A stretch of DNA of 64,000 bases from Tetramitus jugosus. Taxonomy: Eukaryota; Protista; Heterolobosea. Location of the stretch: the NCBI GenBank assembly GCA_937625935.1, contig OW569364.1:62001-126000 (forward strand), read 5' to 3'. This document shows, in pieces, positions 46,971-57,769 of the stretch (within the stretch, counting starts at the first letter, position 1; every line of letters begins with the position of its first letter). The notes beneath the pieces were generated by a model. The model ran no database searches, was not told the origin of the DNA, and saw nothing but the letters and a program-made list of their open reading frames with translations. A program made the position numbers and the translations under genes.

Positions 46971-48038
46971 ATGAAACAGATAGTTACTCTTGTGTTGCTC
47001 ATTGCTGTGCTGGGCATAGTTACTCACCGGTTCCAGGTGAATGCAGAGACTTGTGTGGTTAAAAATGGAAAGGTATGTTTGAGAGCTATACCAAGAATAG
47101 ATTTTTTTGACAGTCGGTTCACACAATTATGATATTAGATGCCACCTGAAGGTTCGTGTGAAGGGCCGATAGCAAGAATTGTGCTCCAACGACAAAGTAC
47201 GAAAGAACTAGGTGTCAATGGAGTATGCAATGAAAAAACTGTATTGTACTTTGTTGATGGGGATCAAGATCAACCAAAGTGTGGTCAGTGTACACCAGGT
47301 ACATCTGGCTTTCATGGAGCTGAAAGGACCTGTAAGGTCGATGAATTTTGTTCAGACGATGGCAAGTGCTCAAAAATCAAGTCTCACAAATTGTATGGAG
47401 CAGCTTGTCCGTACGACAATGGAATACGAGATAGTATAAACGGTTTCTGTGGTCCTGGTTTGAGATGTATTCAACACAAATGCTTGCCATGCGAGAATGG
47501 TGAGATAGATATGGACACTGGAATGGTCTGTGTAAATAACCAGTATACATACAGTGCTGTTGACAAGATGCTCTATGAACCAACTCCAATGATTCTAGTC
47601 TCTATCATAGCTCTGTACGTTGCCTATCAGGCAGTGTTGGGTACAGGAGTATTCGTGAAGTTTATCGTCAAGAGAAGAAGGAGAGCAAACAGAAACAAAC
47701 AATTAGAACTCCAAAGTAACCAAGGCGAAGACCAAGATCCAGCATCACTATTCCTTAGCCAGTCTCGAAAGGGATTCGTTGATCCTTATGCCGATAGTAG
47801 TGACGAAGAAGAACCGGACGAAAGTGAAGATGATTATGACAATTCTGAAGACGACGACAGCTATGAAGGGAGAATATTTGAAGACAGAGATGAGAATGGA
47901 GGAGTTAGGTACTACACTGTTCGGAATGGAAGATCTGTCTGGTTGTCAGAGGCAGAGCTAGCGCAGAATAGAAGATCTCTACCAACAAGGAATAGAACCA
48001 CTCCTAAAGAACTACCAAAGGTACCCTTTCATAGATAA
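46971..48038 (+). CDS. Cys-rich type I membrane protein (intron 47073-47138)
   Basis: Signal-peptide exon spliced in phase 0 to a Cys-rich ectodomain, TM helix and acidic tail. Confidence 0.8.
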
Positions 48039-48099
48039 TCAAATCTCCCCGAGATCTTGCTCCTGTGTAAATAAAAATTCTCAACGAACATATCCCGGC

Positions 48100-48545
48100 C
48101 GTAAATTATGGTTCCCTAGCAGTGGGGCAACTTTCGGGCACTCAATTGATATTCTTGAGCAACTCCTGTAGTATCTTCGGAGCAACAACAGGCTCCAAGT
48201 AGGCCAAGGTATGATGGCAGCAACAAACTTCAAAATTGCCCAGATTTGCCACAATTCACTGTTAATCACTTGCTCTTGAAGTCTTCCCAAGAGAATGTAG
48301 AATCAGAACTCTCAGGTCTATTGTCAGTAAATCGTATCTCCACTAGTTCCATACCATTGCTCAAGAGCATACTCTCAAAAAGCCATTGTTATATAGCTTC
48401 AAGAAGTGTGATGTTCACCACTGGTTCTGCCAAAGTGGTCAAATTCAAGGTCAAACCAGTCATAGACCTCCTTGTGAATCTTGTGGTACTTGTTTCATAC
48501 TTCAAGAGGAATTCAATTCTCTTCCATAGTTTTGGTAAAAACTGG
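48100..48545 (-). pseudogene. Methionyl-tRNA synthetase pseudogene fragment
   Basis: KYHKIHKEVYDWFDLEFDHFGRTS (48492-48420) and RPESSDSTFSWEDFKSK (~48318-48268) match eukaryotic cytosolic MetRS; stops, frameshifts and large deletions. Confidence 0.8.
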
Positions 48546-48637
48546 AAGAGCTCAAGACTGGTTAAAAAACAAAACTTGCGTCTGATGTTTATTGAGTACA
48601 TTGTGAATTGTTGAACGTAACTTCTCCAAGATCTATC

Positions 48638-48997
48638 TCACGATAGGCCTGCGTACTGCTTGTCGCATCCCTTGATATGATTGACCAAACACTGCTTCAG
48701 AAAACCTATCGCTTCATCATTGATTGTTTGGATATTTTTGAGTTGGCTTTCGAACTTTTCATGTTCTGCTCTATGTCGTATCCCTTCCAAATGGTTGTAT
48801 TGGGAGATGAGCTTTTCCTCACAAGCAAAGTGAATTCCAAAGTAATTTAACAGGTTGTTGAGGCTTTCCTGAGTCCGTTTCTGATCCAGTTTATTTACTA
48901 GAGAGAAGATGGTTTTGTGTTGTGAGTTCAACTCGTCATTCTTGACATCGAATGATAGATCCCACTCAAAAGGAGAAGGAATTTCGAACTGGGTCAT
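48638..48997 (-). CDS. Myohemerythrin-like protein (Naegleria Nfa1 type)
   Basis: IPSPFEW, QH, HFACEE, HRAEH, LVNHIKGCD: complete di-iron ligand set in 119 aa. Confidence 0.92.
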   Translation of the reverse strand: MTQFEIPSPFEWDLSFDVKNDELNSQHKTIFSLVNKLDQKRTQESLNNLLNYFGIHFACEEKLISQYNHLEGIRHRAEHEKFESQLKNIQTINDEAIGFLKQCLVNHIKGCDKQYAGLS

Positions 48998-49883
48998 CGG
49001 TGTGTGTTCGTTTTTTGTTGTTGAGTATTGTTGGAGGGTTTATTTACGTCATTCACATGATTGCTATTTGACTCGTTTTGGATATGGTGATAGCGTACAG
49101 TTCATTTATTGGAGGTCAGTTCATACTGCTCAATCAACTGCTCCAGTGAGGGTAGATGTTCTTCAGATAACTCTCTGGTACTCAAAAATTCATCATTGTA
49201 GAGTTTGCAACTGTGAAAGAATTTCTAAAGCTTTAGAATTGTTTTCCATACGCCCAATTACTTGACGAACTTCAGTTAGAATGAGTTTCGAACAATCAGC
49301 CTTTCTGCGATAGTATACTCTGGCATTTTGAGAGAAATGTTTGTAGAATTTCTCCAGAACTTGCACAAGCCCGAGTGCAGTTACACCCATTGGTAATTTT
49401 CGTACAGAAGAAAATGAGTATCTTTTGTCTTCAAGTAGAAATGGTTGAAGTGCTGGGATTGTATTGGCCCATATTTTGTTAACATGATATTGTTTGGGTT
49501 AAAAAATATATTACCAATCCTCAAGTTATTTCCATTGGTCTTCTCGAAATCCTTTTTGTTGATTGCATGTGTGTAAAGCCAATCTTCATATGCCTTCTCA
49601 TACGAGTATCGACTTTTCTTGTCAGATTCTGGAGAATATAGCGGCAGATTATTCCAAGCTTCTTCTGTTTCATTTGCTGGTCCCTTCCAGTTCTTGACGA
49701 AGTAGTCGTATGAACTGGTGTACATCAATGGTACACGATCTTCAGGTCTATCGTGTTGGTTAACATTCCATTCTAAATCAGTAGCACTCATCAACCTGAT
49801 CCCAAATTCACTGTCATTGTTGTTGACTTCTGTGATAATTTCATTTCTTGAGAGATGAATTTGACAATTGATGCAAGAAAAGT

Positions 49884-51625
49884 TTACAGTTCCGACGGTT
49901 TAACAAGATGATGTTCGATTAGGACTTGCTTCTTCACCACCAAATTGGATATGAACGTCTGGTAATGGCGGTCGTGGTACACATGATTCCCTGTCACAAT
50001 TCCCATTTGCAGTTTCATCCACACTTGTTCCCTTGTTTCAGTGGACAAAAGATTCTCTTGTGTTACACCCACTGTTCTGCAAAACTTTCTGTAGAGATGA
50101 GTGAATATCTGAATTGGTACCAAATCATTAGGATTGTTTGTTCTCTCAATCTCTTCAGACTCGAGAATGAACTTGATGAGAGAGTTAACAGAAGCTTTCA
50201 ATTTCATACCAGTGTTTGAAAAGTACGCTGGAAGGGCTGGCCAGATATTGGTTCTGCTATATCTGTTGGTAAAGTCGATATAGGCAGAGTTCATCTTCTT
50301 CAATAGTAGAGCAATCTCTGTACTCTCAATTTGTTTGGCTATATCAATTGGCTGCTTGACCTCCTGTGTAAACTCGCAAACAACAAATCTTCTGGAAATT
50401 GCACCTTTTGAGTCGTCCCAATTACCAAAATGATTGCCAAAGAACATTCCATGACTCTTCCATTTTTGTGTCTTCGCTGTGTTATACTTGGACGATATTG
50501 ATACTCTCACCACAGATGATTTTCTGGATATCCTGTGGCATTCCAAAATCTTTCTTCGCTTCAGGACAAGTATACATTAACTTGCTAGAGAGTGCATCCA
50601 AACCAAAGCTCTTCTCAAAGTTACCACAAGTCAACACTCCAACTTGAGTTTCATCAAAGAACATTTCCAATATTTGTGCGATGGTAGATTTTCCAGATTT
50701 GCTTACTCCAAAAATGTAGGGGGCAATCTGCCAACTATCTCTTTCTCCAATTTCATACAGCATTCTGCCACAAAACACATATATCCAATCAATTACAGAT
50801 CTCTCCAAATTTTTGGTGAGTCAATATACGTTCGAAAAGAGGTGTCTGAATAGTTCTCCAGTCTGTAACAATATCTTCAGTAAAATCTACTGGAAAATAT
50901 TTGCAAGCAACAAGCTCCCTCTCAGCTACAGTCAAATCTGAATACTTCTTGAATATATCCTCTCTTCCGAAATAAATACCATTGGTGAATGAATAGACAA
51001 GCCTATCTGGTGTCAATTCAGGAAATTCTCTCGTGGTTGTTATACCCCTCAAACTTTTGATGGAATGCTCCACACAACTACGGTTAGCAGTAATCATCAT
51101 TAAATATTTCAGACCAAATACATGTCTGTTAGGAGTATTGTTGACAAATGATTCAATAGTTTCGAAAAACTCCCAAGTTTGTGTTGCTATTCCATCATCT
51201 GTATAAATGGGCTTCATCACATTGCCGTTGCATTTTCTGTAATGATGCATGTTCGCGTATCTGTATAAAAACTATAGATAGCGTTGATTGTCATTCTTGA
51301 CTTCACCCAGTTCTGACCTTCTAAAAAAGTTATAATTCTCTGGTAGTGGTGTACCATTGCTCAATTCACAAAGTTTAACTTGATGCTTCAGAATCTGGAA
51401 TGTATTTGAGCAAATGGCTTCATTTACTGGTAAAACTTCTGTCTCCTCCTCTGACATCAATTCGTTATTCTCATTCTCTTCATCATAATCTTCTTCCATC
51501 AGTGCTAGAGAGAGCTCTCCACCTTCAAGTTCATTGTCATGCTCTTCGGATATTAATTCGTGACTCTTTTCAGAACTTGTGTTAATGAGTGCATTGTTCC
51601 CTGTTTCACTTTCTGCTGAATTCAT
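49884..51625 (-). pseudogene. D5-like SF3 helicase of NCLDV/PLV type
   Basis: VYSFTNGIY, FCGRMLY...WQ, Walker A GVSKSGKST, TCPE Walker B, FGN...ISRRFVV; one TAG (51274-51272) and two frameshifts (~50810, ~50490). Confidence 0.88.
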
Positions 51626-52197
51626 TGCACCATCTTCAACAGTGTCATCAAATTGTTTGTCTTCTTCACTGACGTGTTCTACTGTTTGCTATGTCAGAAC
51701 CTCTGTACTCTTCTTTCTTCTCTTTGAAGAAGACTTGTGTGTTTACAATTTGCTTCTTCGAAGAATTACGACTGATAGTGCTTTAAAATGCTCAACACAT
51801 GCGATTCTCCAACCATTTACTTTGAGTTTTGTCAAATTATCCACAAGTATATCTCTTCTAACAGCTTCACGAATATCTTGTGATGCAGTTTTGTTGAAAT
51901 AATTCTTCACATCTTCCAGAAAGTAACTGAATACATCTCTGATGAAGGACTCAAAACCATACCTATCTGTAATTCTTCTTTCAACAGATTTATTTCTGCC
52001 AGACAGAAGTCCACGACAGAACTGCCGAAACAACAAAAGCATCCTTTCTATAGAATGAACTGTATTCAAATCAACAAGTTGACTCAAGCTGAACATTGCT
52101 TTACTATACTCAGATATACTTTAGAAGAATGGATGTTATCAGGACTCGTGTGAATTGAAAAATGACCGAGGTTTACAAAGATAACTAAAGCTAGCAT

Positions 52198-52965
52198 CTA
52201 CAAGCAATATATACTATGCACTCTTTTCGTTGTTTTAGGAGCCTTATTTCCTCCGACGCCGCTATCCGAATATTTTCGGTGTTTGCACTTCACATGGAGC
52301 AAATTCTCCAACTGTTCTGACTTCTCGGCAGTGTTGGTAGCATCATCAGCATTATCTCCAACATACAACTGTGCTACTATTATCATATAATGAAATCCCT
52401 CCCCTTTGTACTTTTTACCGTATCTGCTGACTACACCCGCTTGTAGATGATCGTTGTCTGAGGCAGATGCTCTACCAACATAGAATTCCTGAACATCATC
52501 GTGATCAACCCAATGAAGAACATCTAAAAAATAAGGGTAGCGATAGTATCGACATCCAGATTGTAGAATTGGGTGTACGCTAGTTTGACTTCTGGTACGT
52601 TGCTTGCAATGGACTTCCCATCTAAAGAGAATATGTATTTCCCTTGTCCTCTGTGTGTTATCTGTACACAACTTTTTGGACTCATCACAGGGTGGTGGAA
52701 ATCGTCAATTTGTTGCAAGAACTGGAAGAGTGGACTATCAGTCTTCATGTGTTTCAGAAACAGGTTGATTAAGCTTTTGTCAAGAGCAATGAGCTTCCAA
52801 CGATACTGTTTCATATCCTCTTCATCAACTCTCACAGTGTTGTCATCATCAGCTCCAATATTGGCATCATTGTCGTCTCGAACAGGACTTCTATCACCAT
52901 CATCCACTGTGCCTTGTGGACTATCAGTTGCCAATTCTTCATCATCAAACTCTATTGTCCAGTAG
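52198..52965 (-). pseudogene. GIY-YIG-like nuclease remnant (frameshifted; possibly circularly permuted)
   Basis: FYVGR...SRY...Y...MIIV...EQLENLL...GG...SIYCL; two overlapping ORFs joined by one frameshift. Confidence 0.45.
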
Positions 52966-53080
52966 CTTCTTCTGACATGTTAGCAGTTGTGATGTTTTCC
53001 TGTTTATTTTGAATTTCACGTTGGTTTACAAAATGTTATCAAAATTGAAGGTGCGAATTCAACAACACCAGAGAACTATT

Positions 53081-54187
53081 CTAATAAAATTGAAAGTTGG
53101 TGTCATTGCGAAGAAAGTGTTCAGTTCTTTGCCTTCTAGATCGATTGGGAACCAGTTGAGGTACTGCAATAGTGCTGGACTCAAAGTCCATTCTTACAAT
53201 TGTTGCTCTTTGTCTGTGATCCTCTCTGTAACTGAATTGTCTATTCCTCTGGCGATTTGAGCCATCTGTCACACGAGGATTTAGACTTGGGATTAGCTGT
53301 AAATTGTCTCTGTAAACTTGCATTACCTTGTCACTGGAAACACCTTTCACTTTGTACACGGGTAGATGTGAAGCACTTATAGTTAGCAACAACATCATCA
53401 AGGATATCTACCCAGACTTTTGTTTTGAATCTCGCCATATGTAAGTAAAACAACCGTTTCAGTGTACCGTTGAATCGTTCTATACATCCTTGTGATTGAG
53501 GTCTATATGCAGAACTGAATACTTGTTTCACAGAAAACTTTTTACACAGGGCCGTCATCAGTTTGTTCTTGAATTCACCACCATTATCAGATTGAATGAT
53601 TGTTGGACGAGTGTTAACTTCCAACACTGATTTCACTTCTTTAGGTTTCAATTGTTTTACCCAAACATACTTGGAGAATATGTCAATTACTGTTAGACAG
53701 TATTGATAACTCTAGATTCTCATGTTTTCTACTGTCACCCATATCAATCAAATCCATTTGCCAGCGCACATGTGGTCCTTCTGGAACTGCTACAGGACGA
53801 ACTACCTTCATTTTGTTTGCAGCTGGTCTGTATAGTTGCCTCGTTTCGTCATTGGATATGAACTTTTCTACATCTGGATATGCCAATGTATTGTTGTTTT
53901 ACACGTTCATAGAATTTGTCTCTTCCAAATCCACCTGTTAGAGGATTGTCTTATAACTTGCTCAGAATTTCATCAATGCTGTTCTGTGGAATAATCTGAC
54001 GTAGATCCATCACTAGAATATCCTTTTCATTGAAGGTTTCTATCTTGGCTGAACTCCACCTTCTTTTGAATCTAGCCAAAGCTGACCTCGAGTTCTTTGT
54101 TGGTAATTTTCCATCTCTGACAAAATCCAAAGCTTGGTTGTACTCTTCATCAGTTATATGATGGATGTAGTTTGGATTGATACCCAT
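53081..54187 (-). pseudogene. rve/DDE integrase of Polinton/virophage type
   Basis: GGFGRDKFY, WQMDLIDM, LTVIDIFSKYVW, IQSDNGGEF, PQSQGCIERFNGTLKR; one stop and three frameshifts. Confidence 0.92.
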
Positions 54188-54373
54188 TTACATTGACTGT
54201 ATATAAAGTTTAATCTTCTTCGAATAAAGTTATTCGTTATTCTCTATACCTCTGTACTGGTCAGTGTCCTGTTACCATGCACTATAGCATGTCCCTCTAG
54301 TCACCCATTGTCCATATACATATACTCAACCGCGTTACTCCCAAACTGTTATAGGTCTTTTGACCAAAAACAA

Positions 54374-54998
54374 GTAATTCGTTATTCGTATATACACCAA
54401 ACACTCTACAATGCAGAATACAAATGCAGTAACATATAATTGAATTTATTGAAACAGATAATTATTGAATGTAACAATCTGACTAACACAGAAAGTAAAT
54501 CCAGAATTCCACAGATTGCCCCCAGTTTCACCTCAAAAAATTCAAAAACACATGACAGCACTCCAATAGCGAACTGATGCAACGAATAACATTCTCTTTA
54601 CTTGAATAGTAACAGAGCAGTATTGAAATTTGGGACAACTTTGTGAATATTTTCCTCAATTATTGAAATACCCTGAAGTCCCGCTATGAATATGTATGGA
54701 GAGTGGTATCAAATCACCAGATAAGTGCCACTATCGATATACATATTCATAGTGGGACTTAACTAACACTCAAATCTGGGTGGAAATATGGTTGGATATA
54801 CTGTCAGATTTCTGGTTTATTATATGAGGAAAATATTTTGAATGAAGTCCCATTATTCGAGAAATGCCTGTTACTCTATCTCAATATTTAGTTCTAAACT
54901 TGTGTATTGGATTTGACATGTTTTTGAGGATATTTAGGAAGGCTATAGAATTGCAATAATTTGTTGTTTCTTGGTGTAGATATAGAATAACGAATAAC
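54374..54998. repeat. Nested imperfect inverted repeat (~630 bp) with central 22-bp-stem hairpin
   Basis: Arm pairs 54374-54400/54971-54998, 54646-54658/54825-54837 (13 bp perfect) and 54676-54697/54739-54760 (21/22). Confidence 0.85.
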
Positions 54999-55183
54999 GG
55001 GTCTTCTGTTACTGACTGGTAAATACTTGTATAACTGATTGTGCTTTACTACGAATACAGTAGATTGTTTTCATCTTGCATCTAGATGGGACTAAAGAAA
55101 TGTTGGTATCACTGTTCGCTTCTTAATTTGGACGAATAACTAGTTTCACTAGAATAGTTGAAACCACTACAAAAAAACCCATT

Positions 55184-55219
55184 GTTGTGTATAAATGGGC
55201 ATGCCTATTTATACACAAC
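55184..55219. promoter_or_regulatory. 36-bp palindrome with a TATAAA box on each strand
   Basis: gttgtgtataaatgggcatgcctatttatacacaac, one mismatch, 30 bp upstream of ATG 55250; promoter role is inference. Confidence 0.65.
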
Positions 55220-55249
55220 CACACAAACTCATCAGAAACAAACAAAAAA

Positions 55250-56416
55250 ATGTTGCCAATCATCAACCGACACATCAACAAACGCAATGGTTTGGTGAGT
55301 ACCTTGTTTAGAACAATACAAACGAGTGCACAAGAGACTCCTACTGAGACTACGGTTCTTCATTGGGCCAACTCATATGACCTTGATGATCAGAGGAAAT
55401 TTCGACACCTCATCAAGGCCGTTGTAGAGAATGATACTAGCCGGAAGAGAATTGCACAGGATGATGAAATCATGAAGAAACTTTTGCAAGAGAGAGCCAA
55501 AAGATCTAGAGAACTCAAGCTAGAAGTAATCAAACAAATGCCATACGAGGAAGAATTTGACCAAGAGGTAGAAGGATGGAGAGAGAGACATACAGGAAAA
55601 TTCAATGAGGGACAGAATGAAGCCTTGGAGGAACTTCATCAAAGATTGTTCAATGTTCTTGGAGGCAAGATCCACCAGCTAGAGACTTATCTTGACAAGA
55701 AACACGCAGTGTTTGGATGGGCCCAGATTCTAAGTTCATTAGAGGCTGCGATTGTACTGTTTTTGAATGCCAACATTGCTACAAAGTCTTACAAAATCGG
55801 CAGTCTTGAGCTGCTTGAGGGAGTGGTGGCCCGGGCAGAAGATGAAAATAAGCAGATATACGAAAAGATAGCCACGTTCATTAATACCATTGAGTGTGTG
55901 TTGGGAGTGTCTTTGAACTCTTTGCTCAGCTTGATGCTGTTATTGAACAGGTTGAAGAGGAATCCTGCTGCTCATAGAAACTGTTCAAGAGAGGATGTGA
56001 AGGAAGCTACGACGATACTTGTTGCGATTGATAGCAACATTTTGACTCCTTCAGATCCAAGATTATACGTTTCTCACATGATGAAAAATCCACACAATTG
56101 TCCCATTTTAGAGGAACCAGAGCAACGTGCTACTTTGGAGAGAATCACAACAGTCTATATGAATGCTTTGGACTGTATGGGATCATTTTGTTATTATTTT
56201 GGTCTGGATGCACAGCAGTTTGAGGATGAGTATGATGTCGTTAAGGATAGAGATCTGAAGATAGTTCAAACCAAGTTACTTGCATTTTGGATTGATTGTC
56301 AATTGAGAAATAAGGATGTTGTACGAATATCAAAGCTGGTCAAGGAACCAACATTTTTTCACGAAATCAAGTTGCCTAAGGGAACTCCAGAGAGCTCAGA
56401 AGCTGATGGGGAGTAG
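55250..56416 (+). CDS. Intact hypothetical protein with HEPN-like RNxxAH motif and presequence-like N-terminus
   Basis: 388-aa intronless ORF; SSLEAAI ... RLKRNPAAHRNCSREDVKEA; ORF is confident, HEPN call is moderate. Confidence 0.7.
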   Translation: MLPIINRHINKRNGLVSTLFRTIQTSAQETPTETTVLHWANSYDLDDQRKFRHLIKAVVENDTSRKRIAQDDEIMKKLLQERAKRSRELKLEVIKQMPYEEEFDQEVEGWRERHTGKFNEGQNEALEELHQRLFNVLGGKIHQLETYLDKKHAVFGWAQILSSLEAAIVLFLNANIATKSYKIGSLELLEGVVARAEDENKQIYEKIATFINTIECVLGVSLNSLLSLMLLLNRLKRNPAAHRNCSREDVKEATTILVAIDSNILTPSDPRLYVSHMMKNPHNCPILEEPEQRATLERITTVYMNALDCMGSFCYYFGLDAQQFEDEYDVVKDRDLKIVQTKLLAFWIDCQLRNKDVVRISKLVKEPTFFHEIKLPKGTPESSEADGE

Positions 56417-57149
56417 GCTTTTGATGAAGGAGATAGTAGGGTCTTTTTTCGTTTTCTCTATCCATATCCAGAAGAAACAATTCTTGTTTGTAAATCAGCA
56501 ATACTTGTATGAGGTACAGTAGATCCATGACCGAATCCATCTTGCTTCAGGAACCAAAACCAGTTATTCTTCAGTTGTAGATATCTCCTTTTTTAATTGA
56601 GAATAACGAATAACTAGTTTTCATTCTGGAAGTATTCACAACACTGACTTTACGGGTCACTTCACAAATCCACAAACAACAAACTCGCACATCAAAATTA
56701 AACACAAAATTTTTTCATCACACCCTCCGTGGTGAGCGGATGCCGAACAAGCCGGCACCAGTGAACAAGAGTTCACCAATGTATGCTGGTAGTGTCATGC
56801 AAAGTGCCCAAATGAGTTGGTGGTGGTCAATGCGTTGAATTAGGATGATTGCAGCAGTATTCTGGGTCAATGTTGGCCACCAATGTCAGGTGTACCTCTC
56901 TCCGCGTTTCACATGTATGCACAGTGCTGTGCCAACACAAACGAGTGCCATGCCCACATACACTCGCAATCGATGCTCAATCTTTCCAGTGCTTTTGTGC
57001 TTGTTACTAAACAGTAGGGAGTCAATTGTTCTTTGTCCACCATCACAAAGGAAGGTCAAAATATTTCTGTTCTGATCTCTCATATCCATATCGTTGGTTT
57101 CTTCAAAGCACCGCAATCATTGAGAGCTGCACTTGATCCAAGGGGAATG

Positions 57150-57480
57150 CCATCACGTACATACTTTGAGATTTTGACCACATGTGAATCCGTGAAGCTG
57201 TTCGAAGAGAAAATAGTGCTGTCGACAGATAGAAGGATTTAAACTCGTTACAATATATTTTTTCACTAAAGTTGCTCAAAGGCTTTCCAGATCCTAGTAG
57301 CTATTCAGTTCTGAGATTTATAGACTTTGATCCAGATATGAAAGCAGAACAGATCTGATACTTACAATTTCTATTGAGATATGCACAAGAGAATAACTTC
57401 AGAAAGTACAATGGAAATGTTCTACAACATGTTTACACTGGAAATGGAACCGCTTCTCAGACTTGGAGAGCATCCAGAAT
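57150..57480 (+). pseudogene. Second D5-helicase N-terminal remnant
   Basis: *YLQFLLRYAQENNFRKYNGNVLQHVYTGNGTASQTW aligns with RYL*FLYRYANMHHYRKCNGNVMKPIYTDDGIATQTW at 51283-51172. Confidence 0.8.
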
Positions 57481-57769
57481 TGCTCGTTATTCAACACATA
57501 TATGTGACTTGCTTTGATCAAGGTTAGTCAACATATCAAGACTATGAACGGGAAGCGAAATCACCGCTTGGGTAGTTGATCGCTTTCCTTGACGTTGAGT
57601 GCATTGACGCACAAATGGCGCCCAAAAGATCCGTTAACCCAACAACAGAATTCCAGAAATTTCAGTTCCTCTCATATTTCCAAAGGTCCAAATTGACACA
57701 AACAAAAAAGAAAGTTGGACCTGGCCTTGTAACGGTATTTTCCCCCAAACAAACAAAACACAGAAGAAT

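Follow-up and report, generated by a model that had tools for sequence, protein, structure and literature searches.

A candidate HEPN-like cargo gene with a presequence-like leader in a polymorphic virus-like island of Tetramitus jugosus

RESULTS

A polymorphic island with broken viral genes

The window analysed here (64,000 nucleotides of Tetramitus jugosus contig OW569364.1) contains a polymorphic virus-like island at 49202–57026, a remnant of 7.8 kb, whose empty site is seen in run X6, where only 10 letters separate 49201 from 57027 in a contig of depth 3.5. The same limits fit loose ends found before 49204 (X2) and behind 57024 (X5, X7 and X9). The plus-strand frames at 48885–49201 and 57027–57242 had no Pfam match; they continue each other in frame across the X6 joint, so the island appears to interrupt a gene. 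Its minus strand carries a broken rve-type integrase (53331–54187; an in-frame stop and frame changes; rve E 2e-8) and a broken D5-type primase-helicase (49884–51271; in pieces over three frames; DNA primase PHROGs E 7e-5 to 2e-4), and to this extent we agree with the earlier note, in which the recognisable viral genes were described as broken. The description of the element as dead applies to the window copy but not elsewhere, given the empty site in X6 and a 5.7-kb contig of the same run that is about 99% identical to the primase region and has 278, 125 and 254 extra letters; because that contig has the longer primase region, less decayed copies of the element exist.

An integrase accompanied by a primase-helicase (or pPolB), the combination used to recognise Polinton-like viruses and virophages, is thus present, and the label ‘Polinton-like’ rests on this pair because other hallmarks were not recognised: neither a capsid gene nor a packaging ATPase among the island ORFs (Pfam and PHROGs, libraries that are weak for such capsids, applied to a copy that has suffered deletions), no terminal inverted repeat in the form of an exact inverted match of at least 13 nt between the island ends, which may be truncated, and no target-site duplication at those ends. 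Given the empty site in X6, the island appears to be a recent Polinton-like insertion, still polymorphic, in the genome of a heterolobosean amoeba. The adjoining gene for a ubiquitin-conjugating enzyme has named matches in Willaertia, Naegleria and Acrasis, in keeping with a heterolobosean host. Among the 22 runs listed, 20, representing 15 studies, contain all or part of the stretch; the comparison of contigs covered eight runs.

An intact reading frame of an orphan family

Within the island the plus-strand frame 55250–56416 is open without interruption for 388 aa, as the ORF list and translation confirm. With at least six lesions in about 5 kb of the island (a count from the ORF list), a 1.2-kb gene would escape about 1 time in 4–5, and we regard the intactness of the ORF amid broken neighbours as weakly surprising. 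The product consists of an acid-free leader, a predicted long helical region (approximately residues 45–115), a likely HEPN-like core (55640–56035, plus strand; approximately residues 131–262, with a conserved block at 129–165, a variable stretch at 166–236, the motif and then a helix) and a helical C-terminal part. The candidate catalytic Rx4H motif, RNPAAH (R237–H242; 55958–55975, plus strand), lies at the end of a predicted helix (222–237), and the words SSLEAAI, which contains E165, and SREDVKEA are found N-terminal and C-terminal to it, respectively, just as had been noticed earlier. E165 (55742–55744, plus strand) is acidic (E or D) in 7/7 reliably aligned rows of the family, a count that leaves out P0008 and P0011, where the alignment is uncertain, and it stands outside any Ex3[KR] motif. 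A 30-nt tandem duplication within 55443–55478 is in frame and polymorphic (L001, X7 and X16; 30-letter gaps also occur in X5 and X12).

A search of 5.8 billion proteins returned P0001 as the sole full-length homolog (41% identity), and each of the eight matches of a profile search against 1.84 billion representatives was a family member or a fragment of one; the ORF belongs to a tiny orphan family. Seven of the 11 rows of the family alignment cover the motif, and all seven, representing four sequence types, carry RNP[AV][AV]H, so that the conservation check set beforehand came out in favour of the motif. Between the ORF and P0001, identity amounts to 26/26 residues in the leader, 33/37 at residues 129–165, 19/71 at residues 166–236, 7/7 in RNPAAHR and 37/124 C-terminal to the motif, and beyond residue 161, in the C-terminal 60% of the protein, no stretch of five or more residues other than RNPAAHR is identical. 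The paralogs are mosaic, with long near-identical tracts (L001 is near-identical to the ORF over the first 400 nt and about 78% identical over the remainder), and for this reason gene conversion could partly explain the conservation of RNPAAH. Several paralogs are broken: L001 itself, P0003/P0004, which are split, and P0008, which has an internal deletion. Element flanks are found on every gene copy whose flanks are visible, the downstream element sequence being carried by L001 and by a paralog contig in X7.

Relationship to HEPN domains

HEPN domains are defined by Rx4–6H with a polar residue (N, D or H) following the R, the motif being placed at the end of helix 3, ahead of the loop to helix 4 of an all-helical, four-helix up-down fold, and many families, though not all, have an upstream Ex3[KR] (PMC3710099). 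Their RNase activity is independent of metal and needs the R and the H. The ORF product has a conserved Rx4H with N after the R, situated at a predicted helix end. By itself R-x4–6-H is no evidence, because 89% of shuffles of the 388-aa protein contain it, and R[NDH]x3H is found in 9%. The family has no Ex3[KR] motif, and no K or R occurs at +4 of position 165 in the aligned rows.

Three family members matched Pfam Ymh (PF09509) over the motif with E values of 0.085–0.16 and 12.3–13.2 bits, below the gathering cut-off of 25 bits. When the ORF core was compared by hhalign with 19 Ymh sequences, the match (56%, E 1e-4) extended over 38 columns, comprising the motif helices alone; it reached 104 columns under a lax threshold only and broke down in global mode (0.2%). 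The ORF nevertheless ranked first against Ymh among 32 ORFs of the window, and none of 60 block shuffles attained its score against seven Ymh sequences. RNPxAH is found in 9/19 Ymh sequences and exactly RNPAAH in 2/19, and the position of the conserved Ymh Glu is apparently Gly in the family (HAVFG versus HAVFE). For HEPN_Swt1 (PF18731) there was no Pfam match, and the hhalign value against 10 bacterial domains (2.8%) was reached by 1/60 shuffles. The domains of both kinds were gathered from prokaryotic genomes; two duplicates and four partial matches were dropped in arriving at the 19 Ymh sequences, and one short match out of 11 for Swt1.

Named entries of the ESM Atlas at 0.78–0.80, which we take as leads only, were RnlA-toxin_DBD (11% of a cluster), HEPN_Swt1 (20%) and Csm6_HEPN; elsewhere, the searches for named matches gave no significant family or structure match for the ORF product. 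Both structure models have the helix 222–237, the motif, a loop and a helix at 247–261/263, with low confidence past residue 238 (the better model has a mean pLDDT of 53, and below 50 across 238–286), and four fold searches, in which the N-terminal helix dominated the results, gave no significant match. Overall, the evidence converges on HEPN but is weak. For the HEPN RNase identity proposed earlier, the family-wide motif, its place at a predicted helix end and a weak match to Ymh provide genuine though partial support, and we consider a HEPN fold with RNase activity to be probable.

A leader with features of a mitochondrial presequence

The acid-free leader comprises 28 residues (55250–55333, plus strand), the first acidic residue being at position 29 and preceded by three R and one K; the basic, acid-free N-terminus pointed out previously is therefore real. 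Its hydrophobic moment is 0.64, and RTIQTS (with R21) matches the R-10 consensus (PMC7996597). The window has 32 ORFs that start with ATG and reach 150 aa; five of them have an acid-free start of at least 28 residues, and the 388-aa ORF is the only one (1/32) with an R-10 motif within the first 45 residues. The only other leader in the window that is acid-free, basic and non-hydrophobic belongs to an acyl-CoA dehydrogenase ORF, an enzyme that is normally mitochondrial. The R-10 motif and this internal control agree with a predicted mitochondrial presequence, likewise part of the earlier description, and heuristics alone find the features of a cleavable presequence (basic, acid-free and amphipathic, with an MPP/MIP motif). 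On balance we lean slightly towards import of the ORF product into mitochondria. The complete identity of residues 1–26 (55250–55327) in a paralog as divergent as P0001 suggests, as far as sequence comparison goes, that the leader may be a shared or recently shuffled module.

An element-wide motif and a variable upstream segment

The two exact copies of a 15-mer that had been described as direct repeats bracketing the gene are present, at 55132–55146 (plus strand; 118 nt upstream of the ORF ATG) and at 56606–56620, and an exact 15-mer repeat occurs in only 2/500 shuffles of a 2.5-kb stretch. They do not, however, form a private pair: the 9-mer core ACGAATAAC has six copies in 54229–56614, on both strands, and none elsewhere in the 64-kb window (expectation 0.27), and longer shared versions of the motif link 56601 with 54985 (plus strand) and 54229 (minus strand). 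On the plus strand, further copies lie at 54984–54998 (260 nt upstream of the ORF ATG) and, as the core, at 54582–54590 (668 nt from the ORF); together with the left 15-mer, these two copies point at the ORF. On the minus strand, the copy at 54229–54248 points at the integrase start, with its core 50 nt before the integrase ATG, and a second copy directed towards that start lies at 54374–54389, 202 nt away.

Breakpoints recur at the right copy (56596–56620, plus strand), with which a downstream module begins: within 56589–56599, joints or loose ends are seen in L001, which jumps from 56304 to 56596, in X9 (56119 to 56599), in X7 (a loose end before 56589) and in X6 (an inverted joint at 56589). 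The left 15-mer lies in a polymorphic segment of 124 bp (55113–55236; start at 55110 or 55113) that is swapped for 32–34 unrelated letters in contigs of X2, X4, X6 and X7, both forms being present in X4, and further contigs of X6 and X7 join 54931 to 55243. The repeat is spread over the element, and other gene copies lack the left 15-mer, so the suggestion of a repeat-bounded unit is not supported. We think it quite likely that the GAATAACGAATAAC motif is a promoter or a module boundary of the element and, on that reading of the motif, that the gene occupies a variable slot for cargo instead of forming a cassette of its own. A strong hairpin (54676–54760; 22-nt arms, z = −9.4) lies between the integrase and the ORF, and a contig of X2 ends at 54671, at the foot of this hairpin.

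Selection and transcription

Compared with L001, itself a broken copy, dN/dS over codons 146–352 is 0.91 (bootstrap 0.62–1.46), which leaves the dN/dS below 1 looked for in paralogs without support; by segment it is 0.11 at codons 150–175, 1.4 at 176–230 and 0.96 at 231–265, which include the motif. Five of seven allelic changes, picked among the changes listed, are non-synonymous. A neutral simulation of the divergence from L001 predicts 4.7 stops and one is observed (P about 0.05), and most of the ORF indels among those listed keep the frame (30, 15, net +36 and net −6). The selection signal on the ORF is ambiguous, and the pattern fits a cargo gene that changes fast and turns over by birth and death. 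Retention by the host, the other suggestion made earlier, is not supported, given the element flanks on all copies with visible flanks, a dN/dS near 1 and the several broken copies.

Contigs of the metatranscriptome X9 span 55334–56439 with few differences, one contig of X5 covers 55244–56526, and the ORF is also covered by contigs of X2, an RNA library in which a spliced host intron is seen as well. These contigs suggest that the ORF is transcribed.

DISCUSSION

The analyses presented above describe a gene of a tiny family carried by a young element, and we tentatively favour, with rather less than even confidence, the view that it encodes an element-borne, likely mitochondrion-addressed and divergent Ymh-like HEPN RNase serving as a triggered effector of the abortive-infection type. 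The ORF would be a cargo gene of a young, polymorphic integrase plus primase-helicase (Polinton-like) element, and its product, a predicted HEPN RNase, would be imported into mitochondria and may remain inactive until a trigger, for example giant-virus infection, is encountered, the latter being the most speculative step. Once triggered, the enzyme could cut RNA, so that the cell is stalled or killed, and this shutdown might protect clonal neighbours with the same element. A triggered role is suggested by analogy with the prophage-encoded Tha (PMC11087260) and with the defence-like cargo that a recent preprint proposes for small eukaryotic DNA viruses (bioRxiv 10.64898/2026.10.13.758929). The most specific form of this proposal, in which a HEPN RNase of bacterial type, carried in the satellite-style variable cargo slot of a Polinton-like element of amoebae, has acquired a mitochondrial presequence and cuts mitochondrial RNA to shut the cell down, we consider unlikely in all its parts together.

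That the product is not a HEPN protein at all, being instead an all-helical orphan of the element in which RNPAAH is a structural or binding motif or lies in a gene-conversion tract, is somewhat unlikely, and it is the alternative that we take most seriously: significant family or structure matches were not found, the Ymh match is restricted to 38 columns and the paralogs are mosaic with long near-identical tracts, but a motif named beforehand proved conserved in 7/7 rows against a background of about 29% identity, and the leads from Pfam, hhalign and the ESM Atlas all point towards HEPN families. It is also conceivable, with a distinctly lower probability, that the gene is a HEPN-derived and nearly neutral passenger whose copies arise together with the element and then degrade, the window copy being intact by chance. 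A dN/dS of about 0.9, the preponderance of non-synonymous changes among the picked allelic ones (5/7), the several broken copies and an escape from lesions that is plausible at the lesion density of the island are all compatible with a passenger, against which speak the single stop where neutrality predicts 4.7 (P about 0.05), the in-frame nature of most listed ORF indels and the dN/dS of 0.11 at codons 150–175.

The two remaining alternatives are less probable again. In one, the gene is a selfish addiction toxin: an antidote encoded by the element would neutralise an RNase that is constitutively active in mitochondria, and loss of the element would kill the cell. HEPN domains are common as toxins in toxin–antitoxin systems (PMC3710099), and the gene is open while its neighbours decay and is covered by RNA-library contigs, but no intact partner ORF was found adjacent to it, an empty site and broken copies occur naturally, and the antidote is the part that we would expect to persist in such a pair; we hold an addiction toxin to be very unlikely. 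Lower still we place the original proposal, in which the gene was captured, or moved, as one unit between 15-bp direct repeats and has since been retained by the host: the two identical 15-mers do exist and would seldom arise by chance, and breakpoints recur at the right one, yet there are six copies of the core on both strands, the left copy is missing from copies of the gene in four runs, and the joints listed for the eight runs compared include none that links the left 15-mer with the right. The cassette claim thus falls, and the claim of a cargo combining a HEPN domain with a presequence survives as a lead.

Among the closest known systems is Ymh (PF09509), which is classed as HEPN and is found alone or in fusion with paraMORC or Abi N-terminal domains (PMC3710099). 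The two share RNPxAH closing a helix, with a loop and the last helix after it, a similar domain length and a HAVF-like word upstream; unlike Ymh, the ORF product is eukaryotic, has a presequence-like leader, a long helical N-terminal region and an extra C-terminal helical part, matches the domain below the cut-off and locally, and apparently has Gly at the position of the Ymh Glu. In the same source, solo Swt1/Ava_2192-like HEPN proteins of Naegleria, dictyostelids and Daphnia are described as bacterial-type, multi-copy and proposed antiviral RNases, and its available text describes no link of these to mobile elements or mitochondria (PMC3710099). The ORF resembles them as a candidate bacterial-type HEPN domain, in several copies, in a heterolobosean and differs in the hhalign value of 2.8% and the lack of a Pfam HEPN_Swt1 match. 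Among HEPN defence genes borne by prophages and satellites, Tha of Staphylococcus aureus prophages (PMC11087260) and the P2/P4 hotspots (PMC9122126) offer the combination of an integrated element, a variable cargo slot and a triggered RNase that protects the host; they are bacterial, with a known trigger and inhibitor and without organelle targeting, and no sequence link to the ORF is shown.

Endogenous Polinton-like viruses and virophages of protists, as described in PMC10120064, likewise present an rve integrase and a primase-helicase as an island in a protist genome, in contrast to which the 7.8-kb remnant has no recognised capsid, packaging ATPase, TIR or target duplication. Putative defence cargo has been described for the Polinton-like/virophage group (bioRxiv 10.64898/2026.10.13.758929), although the main text of that preprint never uses the word ‘HEPN’. 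A literature search whose coverage left out most subscription titles turned up neither a report of HEPN genes in Polinton-like elements nor one of mitochondrion-targeted HEPN effectors.

Endogenous virophages and Polinton-like viruses have been proposed as a defence of protists against giant viruses, with few effectors named. If true, the presence of a HEPN RNase there would carry the pattern of antiviral cargo in prophages and satellites over to eukaryotes, and delivery of a HEPN effector to mitochondria would be a route without precedent in the mostly open-access literature searched. Should the HEPN assignment not hold, there would still be a family of orphan cargo genes and, in the element motif, a useful finding.

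Finally, several minor features of the locus deserve mention. A contig of X2 joins 48039 to 57604 (with 30 letters on the short side), and this joint may mark a larger outer insertion, 48040–57603, that includes an intact hemerythrin gene (48638–49039). Near the right end of the island, 56696–57024 consists of repeated segments with many differing junctions across several runs; 56696–56915 is skipped in X2, X6 and X7, and X6 joins the 56696–57024 region, inverted, to the integrase ends. The segment 51947–52969, for which an X2 contig has zero differences, includes an unassigned frame and a second frame with the word FYVG, which is reminiscent of GIY-YIG nucleases; a Pfam search of the latter frame gave no match. 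In the host gene to the left of the island (47137–48039), 46 of about 900 letters differ from an X2 contig, compared with 1/734 in the gene to the right, and divergent haplotypes meet at the island locus.
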